A stretch of DNA of 64,000 bases from Bacteroidota bacterium (GTDB lineage: Bacteria; Bacteroidota; Bacteroidia; Sphingobacteriales; Sphingobacteriaceae): the NCBI GenBank assembly GCA_037032985.1, contig JAZBLB010000027.1:4295-68294 (forward strand), given 5' to 3'. Position 1 is the stretch's first letter; every line of letters starts with the position of its first letter. Position numbers and translations under genes: made by a program. Under the pieces are notes generated by a model. It saw only the letters and a list, made by a program, of their open reading frames with translations, was not told the origin of the DNA and searched no databases. Below are positions 4,045-40,516 of this stretch, piece by piece.

Positions 4045-4395
4045 ATGGTTATTACAATATTAAAATCGAAAATACACCGTGTTAAAGTAACACAAGCTGA
4101 ACTTAATTATGTAGGCAGTATTACGATAGATGAAGATTTGATGGATGCGGCTAATATTATCGCAAACGAGAAGGTGCAAATTGTTAATAATAATAATGGT
4201 GCACGCTTCGAAACGTATGTAATTAAAGGTGAACGTGGTACCGGAACCATCTGTTTAAATGGCGCAACGGCACGTTTAGCACAGCTAGGCGATATCCTCA
4301 TCATCATGTCTTACGGAAGCCTGCCTATAGAAGAAGCAAAAAAGTACAGTCCCATACTTGTTTTTCCTGATGATAATAATCACTTACTAAAATAG
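4045..4395 (+). CDS. panD: aspartate 1-decarboxylase
   Basis: KSKIHR, the YVGSITID self-cleavage Gly-Ser site, RFETYVI, NGATAR. Confidence 0.98.
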
Positions 4396-29489: not shown

Positions 29490-30209
29490 TTAGCTTAGAC
29501 TGAAATTGATAGCCATCTGATATTTTTTTATACCCGGATTTTCATTCCCTGAACGAATATTCCATTTTGGGGCGGATTTAATTACCCGCACTGCTTCTTC
29601 ATCTATCTCTTTCGTTAAGCCTTTAATCACCTCCACATCTGTTATTGCGCCATCTTCCTGAACGTTGAACGAAAGGTAAACCTTGCCCGCTATTCCCTCT
29701 CTTCTAGCTTTAATTGGATATTTTAAGTTTTGCGCTAAGAAGGCATGCATTTGAGTTTGTGCTACCGGGTAGTCAGGGAATTGGTGAAGTGATTGTTGAG
29801 TACTCGCTTTCCTGTCCTTGCTTTCATTATTGAGGTTAAAATTCACATTTAAATTATACCTCACCCTTACCGTCTTACCGTTTATCACTCCAGGTTCCCA
29901 ATTAGGAGACTTTCCTAAGGCCCTTTTCGCCTCAGCGTCGGTTTCTTTGCTTAAGCCACAGGTTATGGATACGTCAGTTAGTTTGCCGTTTTTTTCTACA
30001 ATGAACGAAAGAAATACCTTGCCTTCGGTTTTGGTTTTTATGGCTAGCTCAGGATACTTAAGCTCCCCAGCCAGGTACTTATAAAAATTTGCGATACCAC
30101 CAGGATAAATAGGTGGTTTTTCAACAGATGTAAAGTCATAGATCTTCTGTGCCTGTGCGGAGCTGTTAAGCATGGCGATGCCGATTAGGGCTATAAATAG
30201 CTTTCTCAT
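29490..30209 (-). CDS. exported protein with two TonB C-terminal domains
   Basis: Signal peptide (AQA), 'YPGG...KYP...GKVFLSFIVEKNG', and a second 'KYP...GKVYLSFNVQEDG'. Confidence 0.85.
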   Translation of the reverse strand: MRKLFIALIGIAMLNSSAQAQKIYDFTSVEKPPIYPGGIANFYKYLAGELKYPELAIKTKTEGKVFLSFIVEKNGKLTDVSITCGLSKETDAEAKRALGKSPNWEPGVINGKTVRVRYNLNVNFNLNNESKDRKASTQQSLHQFPDYPVAQTQMHAFLAQNLKYPIKARREGIAGKVYLSFNVQEDGAITDVEVIKGLTKEIDEEAVRVIKSAPKWNIRSGNENPGIKKYQMAINFSLS

Positions 30210-30250
30210 AATGGCGCTTTTTAAAATAGTAAGAATTAATTACCTGTGCT

Positions 30251-30868
30251 TCAGTGAGCAGGGATTTTTGCTTTAGTGGTAATGATGATTACGCCATTTT
30301 TGCCCTTGTCTTGATAGCTTGTCGTAGCACTCGCACCCTTAAGAACTGTTATGGATTCAATCGTATTTGGGGCGATGTCATCAATATCATTTTTTTCCAA
30401 GCCATTCACAATATATAACCGCTTAGCTTTTGGATCAGAATCCTTCTGAAGTAAATTCCTTTTAAAAATGGTTGGTTTCCCTGAATGCTTGAATTTTAAG
30501 CCAGTTATTCCATCATTAACGGTCAAGGAGGCGGTGTCAGTACTTTTATTCCAAAGGCTGGAGAGTCCGTTTTTGGTTTGGATCTCAATGACGCCGTTTG
30601 TACCATCTAAGCCATATTTATGGGTGGCTGATGCATCTTTAAGAACATTTACTGATGCAATATCACTAGGGCTTATGGAATTTGCTGCGCCCAGTCCTCT
30701 GATGTATTGTTTATTTCCATCAATTACAATCAGTGGTTCGATTGATCGCTGAGTAGCCGTCCGCTCGGTTATGGATGCAGATGTTTTCACGCTATCCATT
30801 TGCTGGGCGCTGCTTTGCAAGCCCAACAACATTATCAATGCCAGTCCTAATAATTTGTTGATAACCAT
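30251..30868 (-). CDS. exported protein with two TonB-receptor plug-like repeats and no barrel
   Basis: Signal peptide; 'PLIVIDG...ISPSDIASVNVLKDASA..YG..GTNGVIEI' and 'LYIVNG...IAPNTIESITVLKGASA..Y..GKNGVIIIT'. Confidence 0.75.
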   Translation of the reverse strand: MVINKLLGLALIMLLGLQSSAQQMDSVKTSASITERTATQRSIEPLIVIDGNKQYIRGLGAANSISPSDIASVNVLKDASATHKYGLDGTNGVIEIQTKNGLSSLWNKSTDTASLTVNDGITGLKFKHSGKPTIFKRNLLQKDSDPKAKRLYIVNGLEKNDIDDIAPNTIESITVLKGASATTSYQDKGKNGVIIITTKAKIPAH

Positions 30869-30880
30869 GTTTTTTTCGAT

Positions 30881-32887
30881 TTAGAATTTTGTGTGTAGAT
30901 AATCATATGCTGATTTTTTTTCGATAGTCAATTCTGCTTGTTGTGGCTTTCTAAACGCACTGCCTTTTACCATCTTTGTGGTAACCAGCAGTACCCCCTC
31001 TTTTGCAGTTAACCCGTAAAGACTGGTTGCAGCGTTATCTTTTAATACGGTAACCGATTCGATATCATTTGAATTAATTGCATTTAAAGCATTCTTATCT
31101 GTCTTGACCCCATCAATAATTAGAATGCCCTTAAACCCATCCAAGGTAGTTGCTACTCCTGATCCCATAGCAGGCACTTTAGTTTGTTGCATACCTGTTT
31201 TTACCTCTGGATCAGTTTTGGCCTTTTCCGAGGAGGGATTTAGCGTAAAATTCACATTGATGTTATACCTTACTCTTACAGTCTTACCTTGGGTAACTCC
31301 GGGGTTCCAGTTCGGTGAATCCCTAATTACCCTTAGCGCTTCTTCGTCTGTACCGCTACCTAACCCTCTTGTGATCTTAACATCAGAAAGCTTTCCATCC
31401 CTTTCAACAATGAAAGTCAAAAAGACCTTTCCGCTGACCTTGTTATTAACTGCCATTTTAGGATACTTAATGCTTTTACCAAGATATTCATAGAATTTGG
31501 CGATTCCTCCGGGGTATTCAGGTTGTTTGTCAATGGAAACAAAATCAAAAACCTTCTCACTGTTTTCCAAATTTAATTTTGGAACAGAATTACCGATCAC
31601 GGTAATGTCCGATAACCGCTGATAATTTGGAATGGATATAACTTTGGCGTTTTTAAGATTTAAAGGACTCTCTGAGCGTCTGAAGCCTACCTTAAACGTA
31701 TATTTTCCGTTCGGTAGATTTTTAAAGCCCTTATAGGATAACACTGCACGCATCACCTCCTCATCGCAACCCTCGCCTAATTCTCGCACAGTGGCCAGGC
31801 TTCTAATTTTATTGTTCTGAAGGATGAATTTAACCTGCGTATTGCCTTGTATATTGTTTCTCTGCGCTTCTGATGGATAGCTTATTGTTTTGGCTAGAAA
31901 GCGATAAAAGGAAGTCCAATCACCTTCCAATTTAGTGGTTGAAGGACCAATAAGGGTTTGAACGGCTAGGTGATTAGTTACATCAGTCTTCTTGACGAAT
32001 GCTTGTACCATCTCAAGGGGTTGCTCCAAGGGAATCTCATCCGATATAGCAATCAAATTTTCGTTTTTTCGGATAGTAGCTGAAGAAAAAACGATCAGAA
32101 TCGCAAATAAAGGGATGAATACACCATATTTAATGATCGCTGTTTTCTTAGATTTCTCTTTTTGCAGCATGAAAATTCGTTTCTTAATAAGTGATTTATC
32201 AAAGAAACCATTGGTCAAACTATTTGGAGAGATGCCCAAAGACTGGCTTAAAATCAGCATGGCATATTCCGCTTTATCGCCCTGATAGGCTGCAGCATGC
32301 TCATCGGCCAAATATTCATGAATATTTTTTATTGATTTTTTGTATAGATAGATAACCGGATTAATCCAGGTTAGAATGCCCAATACCTCAAAAAATAAAA
32401 TATCGGCTGTATGCCATTGTTTAACGTGAGCATCTTCGTGTACATCTATTACGGGGGCCAAAGGCAGGTCTGCATCGATTACTTTCTGTTGAAAAAATGA
32501 AAATGCTGAACCAGATTTGGCTGAACGAATTAGCTTCTTAACCGCAAATAAGTTAAATACCAACCTCCCCAAAAAAAATAAAATACCAGCACAGTAGATA
32601 AAAACAAAAGCATTCGCCCAGTTTAATCCAGATTGATCATCGCTAACGATTGTGGCTTGTTGTAAAACAGTATCCCAATTCACAGATGTATAGACTTTTT
32701 GAGCAGTCTCTTGTTGCGTAATCCACTCAAGACGGATAAATGGGATAGTGGTAGACAAGACACCCGCCGATACCAAATAAATGCGGTTGAGTATAAAATA
32801 GGTTTCTTTGTCTAACAGGAGTTTATAGCAAGCATAAAATACTATCAGATATAAATTTACCTGTAGGAGGTAGTGGGCAAAACTCAT
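30881..32887 (-). CDS. BlaR1-like M56 peptidase fused to TonB_C domains and a plug-like domain
   Basis: 'LLDKETYFILNRIYL', HEDAH (HExxH), 'WINPVIY...IHEYLAD', 'KKRIFML', two TonB_C-like repeats and a C-terminal plug motif. Confidence 0.88.
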   Translation of the reverse strand: MSFAHYLLQVNLYLIVFYACYKLLLDKETYFILNRIYLVSAGVLSTTIPFIRLEWITQQETAQKVYTSVNWDTVLQQATIVSDDQSGLNWANAFVFIYCAGILFFLGRLVFNLFAVKKLIRSAKSGSAFSFFQQKVIDADLPLAPVIDVHEDAHVKQWHTADILFFEVLGILTWINPVIYLYKKSIKNIHEYLADEHAAAYQGDKAEYAMLILSQSLGISPNSLTNGFFDKSLIKKRIFMLQKEKSKKTAIIKYGVFIPLFAILIVFSSATIRKNENLIAISDEIPLEQPLEMVQAFVKKTDVTNHLAVQTLIGPSTTKLEGDWTSFYRFLAKTISYPSEAQRNNIQGNTQVKFILQNNKIRSLATVRELGEGCDEEVMRAVLSYKGFKNLPNGKYTFKVGFRRSESPLNLKNAKVISIPNYQRLSDITVIGNSVPKLNLENSEKVFDFVSIDKQPEYPGGIAKFYEYLGKSIKYPKMAVNNKVSGKVFLTFIVERDGKLSDVKITRGLGSGTDEEALRVIRDSPNWNPGVTQGKTVRVRYNINVNFTLNPSSEKAKTDPEVKTGMQQTKVPAMGSGVATTLDGFKGILIIDGVKTDKNALNAINSNDIESVTVLKDNAATSLYGLTAKEGVLLVTTKMVKGSAFRKPQQAELTIEKKSAYDYLHTKF

Positions 32888-33261
32888 TTTGGATTCCGTT
32901 TAATGTTATTGATCATTTTTAAAATCTCGTCTACATCACTTAAATCCAGTTTTTCTTCTTTAACGAAGAAGGAGAACATGCTTTCTACTGAATTTTCGAA
33001 GTAGTTGCCTAGAAGCTTTTCGGTAGCATGGCGTTTATACTCTTCCCGGCTAATTAGCGGATAGTATTTGTGTGCCTTGCCAAAAGCTTCATGAGCTATA
33101 AAGCCTTTGGTTTCTAAAATACGGATAATGGTTGAAACAGTATTATAAGCAGGTTTTGGTATCGGTAACTCATCTATAACATCTTTAACGAATGCTTTTT
33201 CCAATTGCCAGAGTACCTGCATAATCTGTTCTTCGGCCTTGGTTAAATCTTTAATTTCCAT
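32884..33261 (-). CDS. BlaI/MecI/CopY family repressor
   Basis: 'LTKAEEQIMQVLW', 'AYNTVSTIIRILETKG'; overlaps the M56 gene by 4 bp; start reassigned to 33261. Confidence 0.92.
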   Translation of the reverse strand: MEIKDLTKAEEQIMQVLWQLEKAFVKDVIDELPIPKPAYNTVSTIIRILETKGFIAHEAFGKAHKYYPLISREEYKRHATEKLLGNYFENSVESMFSFFVKEEKLDLSDVDEILKMINNIKRNPK

Positions 33262-33313
33262 AACAATTTTAAAATAAGTATAACTCAACTCAGGTTGATA
33301 TCCTTAAAGTTAA

Positions 33314-33371: not shown

Positions 33372-34010
33372 CTAAATGGTAATCAGCTTAGTTCGGATGG
33401 CATATACAACCAATCCAGTGCGGGACTTAATGTTCAATTTAGCAAAAAGTGATTCCCGGTAGTTGTCTACAGTTCTCGGACTAACATTCATCAGGTCCGC
33501 GATTTCTCTATAGGTAAGTTCACTGCTGCAGTGTTGAAGAAACGTTAATTCTCTGGCACTAAACATGGGCTTTGTGTCTCCATCTTTAAGGGCGACCAAC
33601 AAACGGCCAGATACCAGATCATTTACATAAAATCCCTTATCTACCACAGTTTTAATTGCGGTAAGCAAATCATTTGGGGTAGATTCTTTTAGCATATAAC
33701 CGCCTGCTCCGGCTTTAAGCATTCCAATAATGGCTTTTTCATCTTCCAGCATGCTCAGGGCCAGTACGTTTACGTCCGGGTAATGTTCTTTTACCCATTT
33801 AGTTGCCGCAAATCCATCCATTATCGGCATGCTGATGTCCATTAATATTAATTGGACATCCGGATATTTTTTAATCTTTTGTTGGAGGTCCACTCCATTA
33901 ATTCCTTCAAAAACGACATCAATTTCATCAAATTCATCTAGTAGGCTTGCCAAACCGGAGCGGAAAAGTGTATGATCATCAACGATAGCAATAGAGATAG
34001 GAGCAGACAT
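33372..34010 (-). CDS. NarL/FixJ-family response regulator
   Basis: 'IVDDH', 'LMDISMP' (phospho-Asp), 'YMLKES', LuxR HTH 'REIADLMNVSPRTVDNYR'. Confidence 0.95.
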   Translation of the reverse strand: MSAPISIAIVDDHTLFRSGLASLLDEFDEIDVVFEGINGVDLQQKIKKYPDVQLILMDISMPIMDGFAATKWVKEHYPDVNVLALSMLEDEKAIIGMLKAGAGGYMLKESTPNDLLTAIKTVVDKGFYVNDLVSGRLLVALKDGDTKPMFSARELTFLQHCSSELTYREIADLMNVSPRTVDNYRESLFAKLNIKSRTGLVVYAIRTKLITI

Positions 34011-34012
34011 GA

Positions 34013-34804
34013 TTAAGGATAGGGTATTTCGATTAAAATTATAGTGCCAGTATTAGTCGACGAATTTAACGTTAATTTTCCATTGATCATTTCTATTCTT
34101 TTATAGATAGAATTTAATCCCATTCCTGATTTTTTTGCACTTGCCTTTTCCTGATCAAAGCCAATACCATTTTCTTTAATGTTAAGGTGAAGAATCTTAT
34201 TCGTGGAAAACGCGTCGAAGGATATGGTAGTAGCATTCGCGTGTTTAATAATATTGTTGATGATCTCCTGTAACAAGCGTAAAATAATAAGATCCTTGTC
34301 TGGAGATCTTTCCACAAGATCAATTAGCCTATTGTTTATTTCTATTTGATAGGCACCGGTTTTATTTAGCAGGTTAATCTCCTGTTCGATTGCGTAGCCG
34401 ATGCCATTTTCCACAATCTGTTCTCCATGCAATAACTTTGCTAGTTCTCTCAATTCTTTAATTGATTTAGTAATCAAGTTGAGAGAGCTTGAGATTTTTT
34501 TCTCCGCTTTTTCGGTCTGGCTTAAATCAACAGAGTTAAGAGTGAGGGTGGTCAGGCTAAGCAGTTGACCTACGTTATCGTGCAGTTCGGTAGCAATGGT
34601 TTGCATGGTTTGATCCTGAACTTCTATCCTGGCCTGTAGAATTTCTGATTCGAATTGTTGCTGCATTTGCTGTTTTTCTAACGCATGATTTTTTTTATGC
34701 CTGGTATAGGAACTCATGTATAGGATCAGAAAAAGTGGCATCAATAAGAATATTAATGTTGTTATCGCAATCAGGATTGCGATTTGCGTTGTATGGCTCT
34801 GCAT
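34013..34804 (-). CDS. HisKA_3 histidine kinase with one TM helix and no sensor domain
   Basis: 'ELHDNVGQLL' H-box, 'QEIINNIIKHA' N-box, 'ENGIGF', 'GMGL'; a single N-terminal hydrophobic helix. Confidence 0.9.
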   Translation of the reverse strand: MQSHTTQIAILIAITTLIFLLMPLFLILYMSSYTRHKKNHALEKQQMQQQFESEILQARIEVQDQTMQTIATELHDNVGQLLSLTTLTLNSVDLSQTEKAEKKISSSLNLITKSIKELRELAKLLHGEQIVENGIGYAIEQEINLLNKTGAYQIEINNRLIDLVERSPDKDLIILRLLQEIINNIIKHANATTISFDAFSTNKILHLNIKENGIGFDQEKASAKKSGMGLNSIYKRIEMINGKLTLNSSTNTGTIILIEIPYP

Positions 34805-35430
34805 ATGTAGCTGTAAATCCAGTTACTGTAAAGAATGATATTGATAATGTAATAAATAAATAAGTGGAGTGGGATGTGGTCGAATAATTTTATTTTGAAG
34901 AGTCCATAGGTGAGGTTCGTTGCCGTGCTGCCGAAATAAAAAAACAATACCCCGCTTACCCACCAGAACTCCGGATGATATTTAAGTTCCAGAGTTTCTT
35001 CATCATTCAAAAGCTTATAGTAGTAGTAAAGGCAATAAAGGACAAAGATAACTGACATTACATTAACAGTTTGATCATTGAAGACGTCGTTGTAAAAACT
35101 TAAGCCATTCCTCAGGGCGAAAATGGCGAAGACCAGATAACTGATTCCAAGGCCCGCAAAAACAATAGGCCTTGGATCAATATATTTTTTTAAGCAATAA
35201 TACATTCCATAGGAGATGAAGGCGATTTCAACTAATACGAAGGTGTTAAATAACCCAACGTTGTGCTGATGTCGGGCAGAAAGATATGCCCCTCGGGCTT
35301 CTGTAGCTGAGGCAATAAGCAGGTAGGCAATGTTGATTTTCCAAAACCATATTTTGTCTTTTACCACAAAACATAATGCCACAATCAGGCAAACGAGTTC
35401 TGCAATAACGATTGGGGAAAAGAAATCCAT
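34771..35430 (-). CDS. uncharacterised ~7-TM membrane protein
   Basis: Seven hydrophobic segments, including 'FWWVSGVLFFYFGS'; its 3' end overlaps the kinase start by 34 bp. Confidence 0.75.
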   Translation of the reverse strand: MDFFSPIVIAELVCLIVALCFVVKDKIWFWKINIAYLLIASATEARGAYLSARHQHNVGLFNTFVLVEIAFISYGMYYCLKKYIDPRPIVFAGLGISYLVFAIFALRNGLSFYNDVFNDQTVNVMSVIFVLYCLYYYYKLLNDEETLELKYHPEFWWVSGVLFFYFGSTATNLTYGLFKIKLFDHIPLHLFIYYIINIILYSNWIYSYICRAIQRKSQS

Positions 35431-35432
35431 AA

Positions 35433-35822
35433 TTACAATTCAACCCCGTCACATGAGGAAGGACAAAGGGAACCCCTGTTCTCAATATCTGTTAGATCAT
35501 CCTCATGTTCTTTTGTATCCCTACCAAGATGATTGGTATTTCCAGCTGCCAAAGTGGGCACGAGCAATACCGTATTTCGTCCTCTGTGTGATTCAGGCAG
35601 GTCACTCAGGGATCCCTCTACATATTTGGCAAAGTATATTCTCAGTCCATCATATTTGCTGTCTTTAATCTTTTCCGCCATTTCCAGGATTTGAGCTGCA
35701 GGAAACCATACTGCTTTCGTATAGGCCTGCGCATTTGAATCTTTTGCATCCAAACCGAAAGCTTCAACCATTTCGCGAGCAAGATCTGCATCAATAGGTT
35801 CATATTTGTTCATTTTTTCCAT
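35433..35822 (-). CDS. uncharacterised 129-aa protein with a C-terminal CPxxC tail
   Basis: 'KAVWFP', 'DGLRIYFAKY', 'RNTVLLVPT', 'ENRGSLCPSSC'; 2-bp gap to the next gene; no signal peptide. Confidence 0.75.
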   Translation of the reverse strand: MEKMNKYEPIDADLAREMVEAFGLDAKDSNAQAYTKAVWFPAAQILEMAEKIKDSKYDGLRIYFAKYVEGSLSDLPESHRGRNTVLLVPTLAAGNTNHLGRDTKEHEDDLTDIENRGSLCPSSCDGVEL

Positions 35823-35936
35823 ACTATATTGTTACGTCTTTTATTCCCCTAAAGTCGTGATTTTGATTTTTGCAGGCAAGGATGATCACATTTTTTACTA
35901 CCGTAAAAACACCTTTTTATTTAGGGTGAATTGTGC

Positions 35937-36129: not shown

Positions 36130-36357
36130 ATGAACAGTGTTTCAAGTCAGGAAAATTGCAATTCGATAACTGAACGCGAAATAGATATTGTACGTCTTCT
36201 ATCCCAAGGGTACAATAGTAAAGAAATTGGTGATATGCTTTTTATTAGTGAACACACTGTAAATACACATAGAAGAAATATGGTAAGAAAACTTGATTTG
36301 CGCAATTCTTATCAGCTCATTGTATGGGCCTTCAAACAAAGAATTTTGTCCTGCTAA
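36130..36357 (+). CDS. stand-alone LuxR/GerE-type HTH regulator
   Basis: 'ITEREIDIVRLLSQGYNSKEIGDMLFISEHTVNTHRRNMVRKL'; 75 aa with no receiver or ligand-binding domain. Confidence 0.88.
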   Translation: MNSVSSQENCNSITEREIDIVRLLSQGYNSKEIGDMLFISEHTVNTHRRNMVRKLDLRNSYQLIVWAFKQRILSC

Positions 36358-36471: not shown

Positions 36472-37263
36472 TTACTTGATACTTTTCTTAAGCACTATAA
36501 AATAGCCTAAGATAAAAAGCACTGCGGCGTAAATTAAACTGGTGTATATTTCTTGTGTGAAGATTGGAAATGTGGATACATCTGTGGCTGATTTACTGCT
36601 GTGTAAAACCAAAGTAGGATGACTGTAAGGGATTAGGTAAGCGTATTTCCAGCCTACATTCGCTGTAATAATACCCATAATGGTACCGATGAAGCCTATT
36701 CCCATTGGCTTTAAGAAATCGCCCCAGAGTAAACTCAGTAGAAATTGAATCGATAAAATTCCAAGTGATGATAAGAAGAGTTTGGCGTAAAATTTAATTA
36801 ATATCGATGATGGATCATATTGATCAAAACTGTATTTCGGAATTAGGAGATGTAATAAGTGTCCGAATACAAAAGTAAGTCCGGCAAATAAAAATAGTGA
36901 TATCAATATCAGTAGCACTGCATAGATATATTTGGCCGCATAAATAGAAAATTTGTTCAGCGGCTGTGCAAATAGTGATTTCCAGGTGTCATTTTTATGT
37001 TCAATGTTGTTTACCGAGAAGGCCATAAAAATGACATAGAAAGGCAAGATTAAGATTCCCATTACGTTAAGCGCGGCACTGATGTAACGTAACCAAAGAA
37101 TCATTGGTGGTTGATGCAAGTTCAAGATTTTTTCTGAACTGCTGTAAAAACCAAAGGTAATCAGCCCGCAAATAATCAGGGGTAGTAAAATAGATGCCCA
37201 GAAAGCAAGGGTTTTTCTTGATTTATAGAATTCTGAGTAAATGGAGATGAATAAAGAGCGCAT
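36472..37263 (-). CDS. ABC-2 type permease (lantibiotic-immunity LanE/G-like)
   Basis: 'SEFYKSRKT', 'IEHKNDTWKSLFAQP', 'IYAAK', 'LIPYSHP'; 6 TM. Confidence 0.8.
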   Translation of the reverse strand: MRSLFISIYSEFYKSRKTLAFWASILLPLIICGLITFGFYSSSEKILNLHQPPMILWLRYISAALNVMGILILPFYVIFMAFSVNNIEHKNDTWKSLFAQPLNKFSIYAAKYIYAVLLILISLFLFAGLTFVFGHLLHLLIPKYSFDQYDPSSILIKFYAKLFLSSLGILSIQFLLSLLWGDFLKPMGIGFIGTIMGIITANVGWKYAYLIPYSHPTLVLHSSKSATDVSTFPIFTQEIYTSLIYAAVLFILGYFIVLKKSIK

Positions 37264-37265
37264 TT

Positions 37266-38174
37266 TTAAGCGGTTTTAGTGATGTCCAGGAAAAGGTTTT
37301 CGAGGTCTTTTCTCTGTTGTGAAAGGCTGCTTACGGTGAAGTTGTTTTGAATAAGCAAGGTGTTAATCGTTCCACTTTCTTGTCGAGAAACAAACGGAAT
37401 ACTAATCTTTGCATCTGTTTTGGCTACGATCTCATATCCTTTTGCCATAAGAAGGGTTGCAGCTTCGCCCGCATTATCCAATTCGATTTCTAATAAAGGC
37501 TTGTTAAGTAATTGAAGCTCCTGAATAGTTCCCTGAAAAAGTAACTGGCCCTTGTTGATGATGCCCACATGTGTAGCAGTTCTTTCTATTTCGGAAAGAA
37601 GGTGGCTCGACACGAGTATTGTTTTATTGTGTTTGGTGGTGAGTTCAATCATCAGGTTTCTAATCTCGATGATCCCGTTCGGGTCTAGGCCATTAGTGGG
37701 TTCATCTAGAAGCAGCAATTCAGGATCCGAAATCAAGGCAAGTGCAATACCTAGTCGTTGTTTCATTCCGAGCGAATACTTGCTTGATTTTTTGTCTGCG
37801 GCATCAGTTAATCCCACTAAGGTTAACATTTCATCAGCTTTGCTTTTTTTGATGCCGAGAAGTAAACAGCGGTTGATGAGGTTTTCTTTACCACTCAAGT
37901 GGCCATAAATGGCGGGTTGCTCTACAAGAGAACCGATTTGCTTAAGGATGGCGATTCGATTACTGTTGATTTCTTTCCCGAAGATGAAAACCTGATCTGC
38001 GGGAGATTTTAGCAGGTTTAGCAGGATTTTTATAGTGGTTGTTTTTCCAGCACCATTCGGACCGAGAAAGCCATAAATACTCCCATTGGGAACCTGCAAG
38101 GAGAGGTCTTTAACGATGGCCTGTTGCCCATAGTTGAAATTTAACCCAACGGTTTCTATTGTAAAGCTGCTCAT
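37266..38174 (-). CDS. ABC transporter ATP-binding protein (BcrA/LanF-like)
   Basis: GPNGAGKTT, YSLGMKQRLGIA, LLLDEPTNGLDP, VSSHLL. Confidence 0.92.
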   Translation of the reverse strand: MSSFTIETVGLNFNYGQQAIVKDLSLQVPNGSIYGFLGPNGAGKTTTIKILLNLLKSPADQVFIFGKEINSNRIAILKQIGSLVEQPAIYGHLSGKENLINRCLLLGIKKSKADEMLTLVGLTDAADKKSSKYSLGMKQRLGIALALISDPELLLLDEPTNGLDPNGIIEIRNLMIELTTKHNKTILVSSHLLSEIERTATHVGIINKGQLLFQGTIQELQLLNKPLLEIELDNAGEAATLLMAKGYEIVAKTDAKISIPFVSRQESGTINTLLIQNNFTVSSLSQQRKDLENLFLDITKTA

Positions 38175-38177
38175 TAG

Positions 38178-38435
38178 TTATTTGAAAATAGCTGTTGCCT
38201 GTTTTACAATACCCGAAGATGTTTTAGCCGGTTTTACGACAACCTCAGTTTCATTTTGATTTGTATTAACACTAAGCGTTAAAATGATCATCATAAAAAC
38301 GGGTAACAAGAGAAGTAAGAATGGCGAGGTATTGGCTAATTTTTTCATAAGAGTGAGTTTAATTTGAGCAGTTGTGAAAGCATCATCAGTAATTACTGTT
38401 TGTGTTGTGAAGTTGATTGCTGATGAATTTTTCAT
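38178..38435 (-). CDS. small single-TM protein upstream of the ABC genes
   Basis: Hydrophobic core 'SPFLLLLLPVFMMIILTLSV'; 3-bp gap to the ATPase start. The start is uncertain (38459, 38435 or the later Met of MKKLANT). Confidence 0.6.
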   Translation of the reverse strand: MKNSSAINFTTQTVITDDAFTTAQIKLTLMKKLANTSPFLLLLLPVFMMIILTLSVNTNQNETEVVVKPAKTSSGIVKQATAIFK

Positions 38436-38562
38436 GATTGTTTTGTTTTGTTGATTCAAAGAAACTCAAGAAAAGCAAGCTGGTAAAATCTATTATACCA
38501 AGTGTTCAAGATTCTAGATCAACGGGAGAATTTGGCGTTCGTCGATAAATTTTGGCCTTTGG

Positions 38563-38678: not shown

Positions 38679-39710
38679 ATGACAAAAAGTAAAGGCCCGA
38701 TTATATTGCATGCGTTGTACTGGGCGGTTATAGTAATCATCATTACATTAAGTGTCTTTTTTGATTCTGATACAAAGAACATGAAGCACTTCCTGTTATC
38801 GCTCGTGTTATTTGGAATTATAAACGTTTCGCTTTTCTATATTAACTACCTCATCCTTATCCCCCAGTTCATAAAAAAGAAAAAAAAATACTTTTTATAT
38901 ATCTTCCTTTTCGTCATTCTTCTGGGCGCTACGGCATTTGTAAAAACAGCGGTTGCGGTGTTAAATCCAAAAGAGATGATGGAATACATGATGGAAGGTA
39001 AGCGAAAAACCATTACCGTAGACCAGTATTTCTTCGCACAATTATTTTTATGCGGCTTCTTCCTGGTTTCGAGTTGCCTCATCAAGATTGCAGCAGACTG
39101 GTTTGCAAATGAACGCATTCAACGCAACCTGGAAAGTGAACGCCGGGAAATGGAACTTCAATTTTTAAAGTCTCAGTTGAACCCGCATTTCCTTTTTAAC
39201 TCGTTAAATAATATTTACTCTCTTGCTTACCAGAAATCAGATAAAACCGCCGATGCCATTATGAAGCTTTCAGAAATTATGCGTTACATGATTTATGAGA
39301 GCAATACGCCCACAGTGGCTTTGAGTAAGGAAGTCGATTATCTCACCAATTATATTGAGCTGCAAAAAATCAGGTTTAAGGATGGTGCCTTTATTGAACT
39401 TACTTTGAACGGCGAAATTGATGATCAAAAAATTGTTCCCCTGATGTTAATTTCCTTTGTGGAGAATGCTTTTAAACATGGCGTCGTAAATGATCCGGAG
39501 CATCCGGTTAAAATCAATATCATCGCTAACCAGAAAATACTTCATTTCAGCGTGATTAATAAAAAGAATAACCAAAATAAAGATGCACAGGGTGGGGTGG
39601 GCTTAACCAATGTAGAAAGAAGATTACAGTTGGTTTATCCGGACAGATATAAATTAAATGTTGTAAATTCGGCTACTCATTACACCTGCGAACTGATGAT
39701 TGATATTTAA
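38679..39710 (+). CDS. LytS/YehU-type sensor histidine kinase
   Basis: 'LKSQLNPHFLFNSLNNIY', 'LSEIMRY', 'ISFVENAFKHG', 'GVGLTNVERRL'; about 4 N-terminal TMs. Confidence 0.93.
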   Translation: MTKSKGPIILHALYWAVIVIIITLSVFFDSDTKNMKHFLLSLVLFGIINVSLFYINYLILIPQFIKKKKKYFLYIFLFVILLGATAFVKTAVAVLNPKEMMEYMMEGKRKTITVDQYFFAQLFLCGFFLVSSCLIKIAADWFANERIQRNLESERREMELQFLKSQLNPHFLFNSLNNIYSLAYQKSDKTADAIMKLSEIMRYMIYESNTPTVALSKEVDYLTNYIELQKIRFKDGAFIELTLNGEIDDQKIVPLMLISFVENAFKHGVVNDPEHPVKINIIANQKILHFSVINKKNNQNKDAQGGVGLTNVERRLQLVYPDRYKLNVVNSATHYTCELMIDI

Positions 39711-39766
39711 TTCGGGAACCAAAACCAGCGAATTCGAGTAAAAATCATTTAATAAATTAACCTAAA

Positions 39767-40516
39767 ATGAACTTAAACTGTATTGTTGTTGATGATGAGC
39801 CTTTAGCGCTCGATATTCTACAAGATTATATCTCGAAAGTGCCTTTTTTAAACTTTGTGAAAAGGTGTGAAAACCCGATAGAGGCTTTACAAATTGTTCA
39901 GGCTGGTGGTGTTGACTTGGTATTTCTGGATATTCAGATGCCGGAGCTTACCGGGATTCAATTTCTGAAGATTGCAGGAAATAAGTGCCACTATATATTA
40001 ACTACCGCCTATCCGCAATATGCGCTGGAAAGTTATGACCTTAATGTTTCTGACTACCTTTTAAAGCCAATCGCATTTGATCGTTTTTACAAAGCAGTTG
40101 AAAAGGTTCATAATCAATTTAAGCCTGTTGAACAACCAGCAAGCGCAGCCCAGCCCATCATTACCCCAGCACCGTTTTCAGCTCCGGCAAACCCGGTTCA
40201 GGATTATATTTTTGTAAAAACCGAGCATAAAATTCAAAAAATTTACCTGCACGACATTCTCTTCATTGAAGGTTTAAAAGATTATATCTCCATTTTTACG
40301 AAAGCAGAACGTGTAATTACCCTTCAAAGTATGAAGAAAATGGAAGAAGCGTTACCGCAAAGTCAATTTATCCGGGTACATAAATCCTATATTGTAGCAG
40401 TAGATAAAATCGAAAGTATCGAACGTAGCCGGATCACCATTAATCAGAAAATTATTCCTGTTGGAGATACCTATCGGGATGAATTTTTCAGGGTGATTGG
40501 AAATAAAAATATCTAG
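39767..40516 (+). CDS. LytTR-family response regulator
   Basis: 'VDDEPLA', 'FLDIQMP', 'LLKP', LytTR 'FIRVHKSYIV'. Confidence 0.95.
   Translation: MNLNCIVVDDEPLALDILQDYISKVPFLNFVKRCENPIEALQIVQAGGVDLVFLDIQMPELTGIQFLKIAGNKCHYILTTAYPQYALESYDLNVSDYLLKPIAFDRFYKAVEKVHNQFKPVEQPASAAQPIITPAPFSAPANPVQDYIFVKTEHKIQKIYLHDILFIEGLKDYISIFTKAERVITLQSMKKMEEALPQSQFIRVHKSYIVAVDKIESIERSRITINQKIIPVGDTYRDEFFRVIGNKNI

Follow-up and report, generated by a model that had tools for sequence, protein, structure and literature searches.

A small protein family with a conserved C-terminal tail is encoded at the head of a four-gene two-component signaling cassette in Bacteroidota

Two-component signaling in Bacteroidota is poorly understood, and the kinases involved often carry no recognizable sensor. 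A locus from a member of the Sphingobacteriaceae raises the question of what a small, uncatalogued protein with two cysteines near its C-terminus does when it is encoded directly ahead of a membrane protein, a kinase of this kind, and a response regulator. The window, i.e., the whole stretch of DNA analyzed here, comprises 64,000 nucleotides (positions 4,295 to 68,294 of the forward strand of contig JAZBLB010000027.1, assembly GCA_037032985.1). The protein in question, termed FAM in the following, and its most characteristic segment are located as follows:

35433..35822 (stop codon included), minus strand: small protein FAM, 129 aa, first gene of the cassette, member of an uncatalogued alpha/beta family
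35445..35480, minus strand: tail motif N115-R-G117-S-L-C120-P121-S-S-C124-D-G126, a hallmark of the family as seen in alignments

The translation of FAM reads MEKMNKYEPIDADLAREMVEAFGLDAKDSNAQAYTKAVWFPAAQILEMAEKIKDSKYDGLRIYFAKYVEGSLSDLPESHRGRNTVLLVPTLAAGNTNHLGRDTKEHEDDLTDIENRGSLCPSSCDGVEL. A first-pass annotation made from the sequence alone had highlighted the segments AVWFP, GLRIYFAKY, NTVLLVPT, and ENRGSLCPSSC, all of which are present in the protein (residues 37-41, 59-67, 83-90, and 114-124, respectively). It had also described the protein as lacking a signal peptide, and this holds: the N-terminal region is hydrophilic, and a TAG lies in frame two codons 5' of the ATG, so that no N-terminal signal peptide can be added and its absence is no start-codon artefact. 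The interpretation that the annotation gave to these features is partly supported by the data below; the conserved four-gene signaling cassette was missed there.

The compact alpha/beta core proposed for FAM is recovered in an AlphaFold model (pLDDT 85.6), which combines helices at residues 12-26 and 42-53 with strands at residues 57-66 and 83-91. For the flexible linker that was thought to follow this core, the outcome is divided. Residues 92-105 are the most variable part of the family in both sequence and length, as would suit a linker, but the model assigns residues 91-120 a pLDDT of 84-92 and places short strands or bridges at positions 96, 102, 107-108, 113-114, and 118-119, and only the last nine residues are uncertain (pLDDT 56). 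A search for structural relatives of the model yielded no fold match, and the fold, possibly a new one, therefore gives no hint of a ligand pocket.

FAM is a real gene and belongs to a real family, far beyond chance expectation. A word-seeded search returned 75 homologues at E<=1e-18 (119-152 aa), nearly all from Pedobacter/Sphingobacteriaceae and all but one labeled 'hypothetical protein', the exception (1/75) being an isolated 'Rossmann-fold' label. Among 42 aligned Pedobacter-type homologues, the invariant residues comprise N115, G117, C120, P121, C124, G126, and L129 at the C-terminus together with K36, W39, F40, G59, R61, Y63, N83, T84, V88, P89, and T90 in the core. An exhaustive profile search extended the family to 663 clusters (50% identity) at E<=1e-3, including single-domain proteins of 115-200 aa, tandem two-domain proteins of ~290-350 aa, and a few TPR fusions; every name found for the remote clusters was again 'hypothetical protein'. 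Five columns are still invariant in 57 diverse single-domain relatives (R61, Y67, T90, C120, and C124), and W39, F40, G59, R61, Y63, Y67, T84, V88, and T90 are either invariant or conserved to at least 90% over the 42- and 57-member alignments. The core of the family is thus described by a WF after helix 1, a G-[LIV]-R-[IVF]-Y-F strand, and an N-T-x-x-x-V-x-T strand, each of which is found in the window protein. N-termini are diverse: 62 of 148 remote representatives have no hydrophobic segment, 43 carry a lipobox, and 43 another hydrophobic segment.

Comparison of FAM with Pfam, NCBIfam, and PHROGs gave no match at E<=1, a sequence profile search of the PDB none at E<=10, and ten remote relatives compared with Pfam matched no meaningful family. 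None of the representatives read was a fusion of the FAM domain to a 7TM protein or a kinase, the fusion search returning only tandem two-domain, TPR-fused, and lipoprotein forms. An apparent 531-aa kinase in locus L094 proved to be no 7TM fusion. Another architecture of the domain occurs in P0168 and P0218 (444 and 448 aa), in which an N-terminal helical, TPR-like region precedes two FAM domains; both proteins have neither a signal peptide nor the Cys pair.

In the window, three genes follow that of FAM on the same strand:

34771..35430, minus strand: polytopic membrane protein, termed MEMB, 219 aa, 6-7 predicted helices, probably N-out/C-in
34013..34804, minus strand: histidine kinase, 263 aa, with one N-terminal membrane helix, HisKA_3 and HATPase_c domains, and no input domain (Pfam)
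33372..34010, minus strand: NarL/FixJ-type response regulator, 212 aa, with Response_reg and GerE domains, last gene of the cassette

The spacing between FAM and MEMB is 2 nt, MEMB and the kinase overlap by 34 nt, and the kinase and the regulator are again separated by 2 nt. Within the kinase, HisKA_3 spans residues 69-126 and HATPase_c residues 174-262; as an input domain is lacking, input must come from partners. In an alignment of 24 MEMB proteins, only the start Met is invariant and only F155, part of an F-W motif, is conserved to at least 90%, and this lack of any invariant catalytic-type residue fits a transducer rather than an enzyme. None of the 24 proteins matched a meaningful Pfam family, LiaF-type domains included.

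The same arrangement recurs in other genomes. We compared 44 loci, i.e., the window, three distant Pedobacter-type loci, 20 loci from other genera, and 20 further matches including paralogues. A FAM member is located directly upstream of a MEMB gene (~215 aa, 6-7 helices) on the same strand in 44/44 loci, and a HisKA_3 kinase follows MEMB in 41/44, where one exception is due to a contig end and two loci lack a kinase within the stretch that was fetched. For the last two sets of 20 loci, these counts are 40/40 and 37/40. The kinase is in turn followed by a NarL-type regulator wherever the fetched stretch is long enough. In most of 64 cassettes, the gap between FAM and MEMB is under about 15 nt. 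The three Pedobacter-type loci keep the gene order with small proteins that are only 41-52% identical and with outer flanks that differ, an ABC-2 transporter being missing in two of them and a BlaI/BlaR1 pair in one. When all neighboring genes were clustered, the four cassette genes alone were recurrent, and the flanking genes differed.

This linkage extends to co-occurrence at the genome level. When 401 sampled Bacteroidota genomes were searched with profiles, FAM was detected in 37 genomes and 20 of 178 genera, all belonging to one class, and MEMB in 83 genomes and 52 of 178 genera, other classes among them. All 37 FAM-positive genomes are also MEMB-positive; the window's own genome has one FAM copy. 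In 20 MEMB loci without a match to the FAM profile, a small upstream ORF with a FAM-like tail is usually still there, and the tails found in such partner-only loci include PCPPFC, TPCPPVC, NHGQIYP, and GGLQP. A literature search found no description of the cassette. Two-component systems with accessory proteins are a known kind, and the parts of this one are new: FAM and MEMB, two of the four components, have no counterpart in Pfam, NCBIfam, or the PDB.

Individual components of the cassette can be duplicated. Two tandem MEMB copies are present in loci L052 (6399-8118), L068 (7068-8503), and L070 (4532-5960), and two tandem small-protein genes in L041, L057, L062, L074, and L075. L065 and L070 encode a small protein and MEMB with no HisKA_3 kinase detected in the ~3 kb fetched downstream, and here the pair may work with another output.

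The tail is the best-conserved segment of FAM. In the 57 relatives, the mean top-residue frequency is 0.70 for residues 115-126, compared with 0.63-0.64 for the two core strands. The common denominator in the 64 cassettes is an [N/D]-x-G-x-(L/I/G)-x-P(P) element close to the C-terminus that takes the form C-P-x(2-4)-C in many clades; the window protein fits this general element with N115, G117, L119, C120, P121, and C124. The first-pass annotation had named a lack of conservation of the tail cysteines as part of what would refute it; they are in fact kept in close and mid-range homologues, i.e., in the 42 aligned proteins and the 57 wider relatives, and the pair is found in 138 of the 148 remote representatives, whereas only about 40% of the 64 cassettes have it. 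Within the last 30 residues, the small proteins of these cassettes contain a pair in 24 cases, a single cysteine in six, at least one of which has its pair just upstream of this span, and none in 34. Tails that replace the cysteine-containing form read NHGNLIPP, NYGNIGRPP, or GGLQP. Mapped onto a MEMB tree, the Cys-pair trait is clustered and requires ~10 changes, of which at least three are forced by well-supported branches, and the window's clade of six is uniformly Cys-bearing.

Judged by this distribution, the cassette as such can do without the cysteines. Within the Pedobacter lineage, the C120/C124 pair may act as a tail staple or as a redox/metal latch. No third or fourth metal ligand is consistently conserved beside the pair, the closest candidate, H106, reaching 58% in the wider alignment. 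A Cys2-His-Asp metal site including H106 and D108 was also considered, but many Cys-bearing relatives have R, N, or K in place of H106, and the site was therefore rejected. Sister clades with and without the pair represent a natural experiment that can distinguish a redox/metal switch from a mere docking element.

On balance, FAM is probably an accessory subunit, providing input or modulation, of a sensor cassette that is split between the 7TM protein and the kinase. The sensor-less kinase would obtain its input through two partners, the 7TM protein, which is co-translated, and a small protein that is either soluble or anchored. FAM would bind the 7TM protein, the kinase, or both and thereby set the kinase/phosphatase balance, and the NarL-type regulator would in turn act on DNA targets, the promoter of the cassette itself probably among them. 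The C-terminal [N/D]-x-G-x-L-x-P element (here N-R-G-S-L-C-P-S-S-C-D-G) would serve as contact or switch. In the Pedobacter lineage, the two tail cysteines would close a five-residue loop by a disulfide or a shared metal, and such a loop could let the subunit respond to thiol oxidation or metal. Whereas the gene, its family, the conservation of the tail, the obligate neighborhood, and the lack of catalogued relatives are shown directly, we infer the binding of FAM to MEMB or the kinase, the direction of regulation, and any role of the cysteines. Several lines of evidence favor an accessory subunit: FAM adjoins MEMB in every locus compared and the kinase gene follows in 41 of the 44, the four genes are tightly coupled, each FAM-positive genome carries MEMB, the kinase lacks an input domain, MEMB has no invariant residue of a catalytic type, the tail is the best-conserved segment and is modeled as part of the fold up to C120, and the saePQRS system offers a precedent.

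In that system, the lipoprotein SaeP and the membrane protein SaeQ assemble with a sensor-less kinase into a ternary complex and thereby activate the phosphatase function of the kinase (PMC5083920), and neither SaeP nor SaeQ had homology to proteins of known function (PMC5083920; PMC3748130). Both systems consist of four genes that encode a small non-enzymatic protein (~130-150 aa), a polytopic membrane protein that is likewise small, a kinase lacking an extracytoplasmic sensor domain, and a regulator. The likeness is architectural only: comparison with Pfam and NCBIfam gave no family match of any kind, and no relationship in sequence or fold was detected. SaeP is a lipoprotein, whereas the window FAM has no signal peptide, although many FAM members have one; SaeQ has four helices compared with 6-7 in MEMB. 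The gene order differs as well (P-Q-R-S in saePQRS versus small protein, membrane protein, kinase, regulator in the cassette), and so does the taxonomic range, with saePQRS found in Firmicutes (Staphylococcus aureus) and the cassette in Bacteroidota. SaeS and SaeR, finally, are of the HisKA/OmpR class, in contrast to the HisKA_3/NarL pair of the cassette.

In the latter respect, the cassette is closer to LiaFSR and VraTSR, three-component envelope stress systems of Firmicutes, which pair a HisKA_3 intramembrane-type kinase with a NarL-type regulator and in which both depend on a separately encoded membrane protein (LiaF in LiaFSR). The cassette likewise combines a HisKA_3 kinase that has no extracytoplasmic sensor with a regulator of the NarL type. 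MEMB differs from LiaF, however, in that none of the 24 proteins has a LiaF-type Pfam match and that a LiaF-like soluble C-terminal domain is lacking, and no counterpart of the small Cys-tailed protein is known from LiaFSR or VraTSR. Further small modulators, LiaX among them, are reportedly known for LiaFSR-type systems (PMC10269926).

A more specific mechanism can be envisaged for the accessory subunit, in which the cassette would be a bacterial receptor whose agonist is borne by a protein: the G-x-L-(C)-P-P tail of FAM would insert into the seven-helix bundle of MEMB in the manner of a tethered ligand and so gate the attached kinase. Presentation of the tail would be controlled by the folded core and, in Pedobacter, by the C120-C124 loop as a redox or metal latch. 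We regard this version as quite improbable. If true, it would represent a new input principle for two-component systems, realized by two families without catalogued relatives and possibly by a new fold. Independently of that version, learning how FAM and MEMB feed the kinase would add a new type of accessory-protein-dependent sensor. It would also supply hundreds of 'hypothetical proteins' of Bacteroidota from soil, plant-associated, and aquatic habitats with names and with a function that can be put to the test.

Some observations argue against an accessory subunit. No fusion of FAM to MEMB or the kinase turned up among the representatives read, the fold offers no hint of a ligand pocket, and a consistent third or fourth ligand beside the cysteines is lacking. 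The main weakness concerns the membrane: across the 64 cassettes, 37 FAM N-termini are without any signal and 27 carry a lipobox or a hydrophobic segment, and with members thus occurring on both sides, a single docking site tied to one membrane face is difficult to envisage. Moreover, gene order taken by itself fits FAM as the output of the system equally well. This chief rival explanation would make FAM the main effector induced by the two-component system, for example a stress-protective protein or one that buffers the envelope or the redox state, encoded first in an autoregulated operon, like liaIH for LiaFSR. The DNA upstream of FAM bears on this explanation:

35890..35929, 68-107 nt upstream of the FAM start: conserved ~32-nt block, candidate operator, from comparison of four Pedobacter lineages
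36130..36357, plus strand, divergent from the cassette: GerE/LuxR-type HTH-only protein, 75 aa (GerE, E=1e-18)

Read on the minus strand, the block is CACCCTAAATAAAAAGGTGTTTTTACGGTAGT and contains two symmetric elements, CCCT-N7/8-AGGG and TTTTTAC-N4-GTAAAAA. No other part of the intergenic region is well conserved across the four Pedobacter lineages, and the block is a candidate site for the NarL-type regulator or for the 75-aa LuxR-type solo protein. The gene of the latter lies beside the cassette in L001, L003, L005, and L057, which are all Pedobacter-type loci, and is absent from distant cassettes. A scan for sigma-70 promoters and terminators was uninformative; the sigma-70 consensus differs from Bacteroidota promoters. 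In soil metatranscriptomes, contigs with 99% identity cover positions 35596-35794 in two runs, and one contig covers the LuxR-type gene; the two short contigs represent weak evidence that FAM is expressed and are uninformative at the level of the operon.

An effector at the head of its own operon would agree with the conserved candidate operator upstream of FAM and with the fact that the low-depth metatranscriptome contigs show no part of the cassette other than FAM. The coexistence of cytoplasmic and exported forms also poses fewer difficulties if the protein works on its own than if it docks as a subunit. However, the near-obligate adjacency to MEMB, with translation-coupled spacing and without exception in the 44 loci from at least 20 genera, is typical of complex subunits, whereas the effector genes of two-component systems commonly differ from one lineage to another. 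In addition, no FAM copy was found away from the cassette in the genomes and loci examined. We therefore hold an output function possible though rather unlikely and continue to favor the accessory subunit.

Redox sensing through the cysteine pair, which the first-pass annotation had listed as an alternative, would turn the relation around: C120 and C124 would themselves be the sensing site, either as a disulfide or by binding Cu, Zn, or Fe, and the cassette would be a sensor of redox or metal stress. All members of the Pedobacter-type clade have the pair, which is also nearly universal among the remote representatives, and the AlphaFold model places it at the junction of the ordered fold and the mobile C-terminus. 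There is also a precedent in PrrC/SenC, a Sco-type CxxxC protein that is encoded in prrBCA and regBA loci and considered to pass a redox or copper signal on to the kinase/regulator pair. Like PrrC/SenC, FAM is a small protein with a C-x3-C motif whose gene lies beside a kinase/regulator pair. Sco proteins, however, consist of a thioredoxin fold with a membrane anchor, and searches of Pfam and NCBIfam as well as the fold search revealed no thioredoxin or Sco match for FAM. A sensing site would also be difficult to reconcile with its absence from about 60% of the cassettes and with at least three, probably about 10, gains or losses on the MEMB tree. The spacing between the two cysteines varies from 3 to 5 residues across FAM relatives, and a conserved third or fourth ligand is lacking. 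As the primary function of FAM, thiol or metal sensing is thus clearly unlikely.

The suggestion that the tail is released as a peptide signal or forms a thiolactone is unlikely. Worked out by analogy to agr, FAM would be a precursor whose tail is cut, cyclized or oxidized, exported, and finally sensed by the kinase, with MEMB as processing or export factor; we give this elaborated form very little credence. The cassette does resemble agrBDCA in the order of a small protein, a membrane protein, a kinase, and a regulator, and its first product likewise carries a cysteine close to the C-terminal end. It may also be noted in its favor that the 'x' positions in and around the Cys loop differ between species and that an ABC-2 transporter is located nearby in the window. 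The components themselves are dissimilar. AgrD is an unfolded peptide of ~46 aa, and AgrB has catalytic His and Cys residues; in contrast, FAM is a folded 129-aa domain, confidently modeled as described above, and not one His, Cys, Ser, or Glu is invariant in MEMB. AgrC senses through a polytopic domain of its own and AgrA belongs to the LytTR regulators, while the cassette kinase is of the HisKA_3 type with one helix and the regulator of the NarL type (GerE). Neither a protease nor a cyclase nor an exporter is conserved beside the gene, the ABC transporter being missing from L003, L005, and all distant loci. The putative leader would be a conserved, folded domain of ~110 aa that is duplicated in the tandem forms, and many FAM members are lipoproteins or membrane-anchored. 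The tail, which would have to be the signal, is the most conserved and not the most variable part of the family, packs onto the fold up to C120 in the AlphaFold model, and has its cysteines replaced in ~60% of orthologous cassettes. Among the RiPP-precursor families in Pfam and NCBIfam, there is no match to FAM. A RiPP precursor with a large leader of the NHLP or Nif11 type was rejected, with no Pfam or NCBIfam match at E<=1 and no maturase or export gene conserved among loci in which the four cassette genes alone recur.

Beyond the cassette, the window contains several further genes of possible regulatory interest. At 38679-40516 on the plus strand, upstream of the cassette, are genes for a kinase of the LytS type (His_kinase, 343 aa) and for a 249-aa LytTR regulator. 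The pair is present at the same relative position in all three distant Pedobacter-type loci (L001, L003, and L005) and not in other genera, and it could engage in cross-talk or share a regulon with the cassette, as its position suggests. Between the cassette and this pair, at 36472-38459 on the minus strand, lie genes for an ABC-2 permease (ABC2_membrane_4) and an ABC ATPase as well as a 93-aa ORF that contains a single hydrophobic segment, which together look like a bacteriocin- or lantibiotic-immunity-type transporter. This block is found in the window and L001; as it is missing from L003 and L005, it is considered to lie outside the cassette. On the other side, at 29490-33288 on the minus strand, a 134-aa repressor of the BlaI type is encoded first. 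Next comes a BlaR1-like M56 peptidase of 668 aa, to which TonB_C and a Plug-like segment are fused, and then two more Plug/TonB_C proteins. This unusual BlaI/BlaR1-like signal-transducing architecture is kept in L001 and L005.
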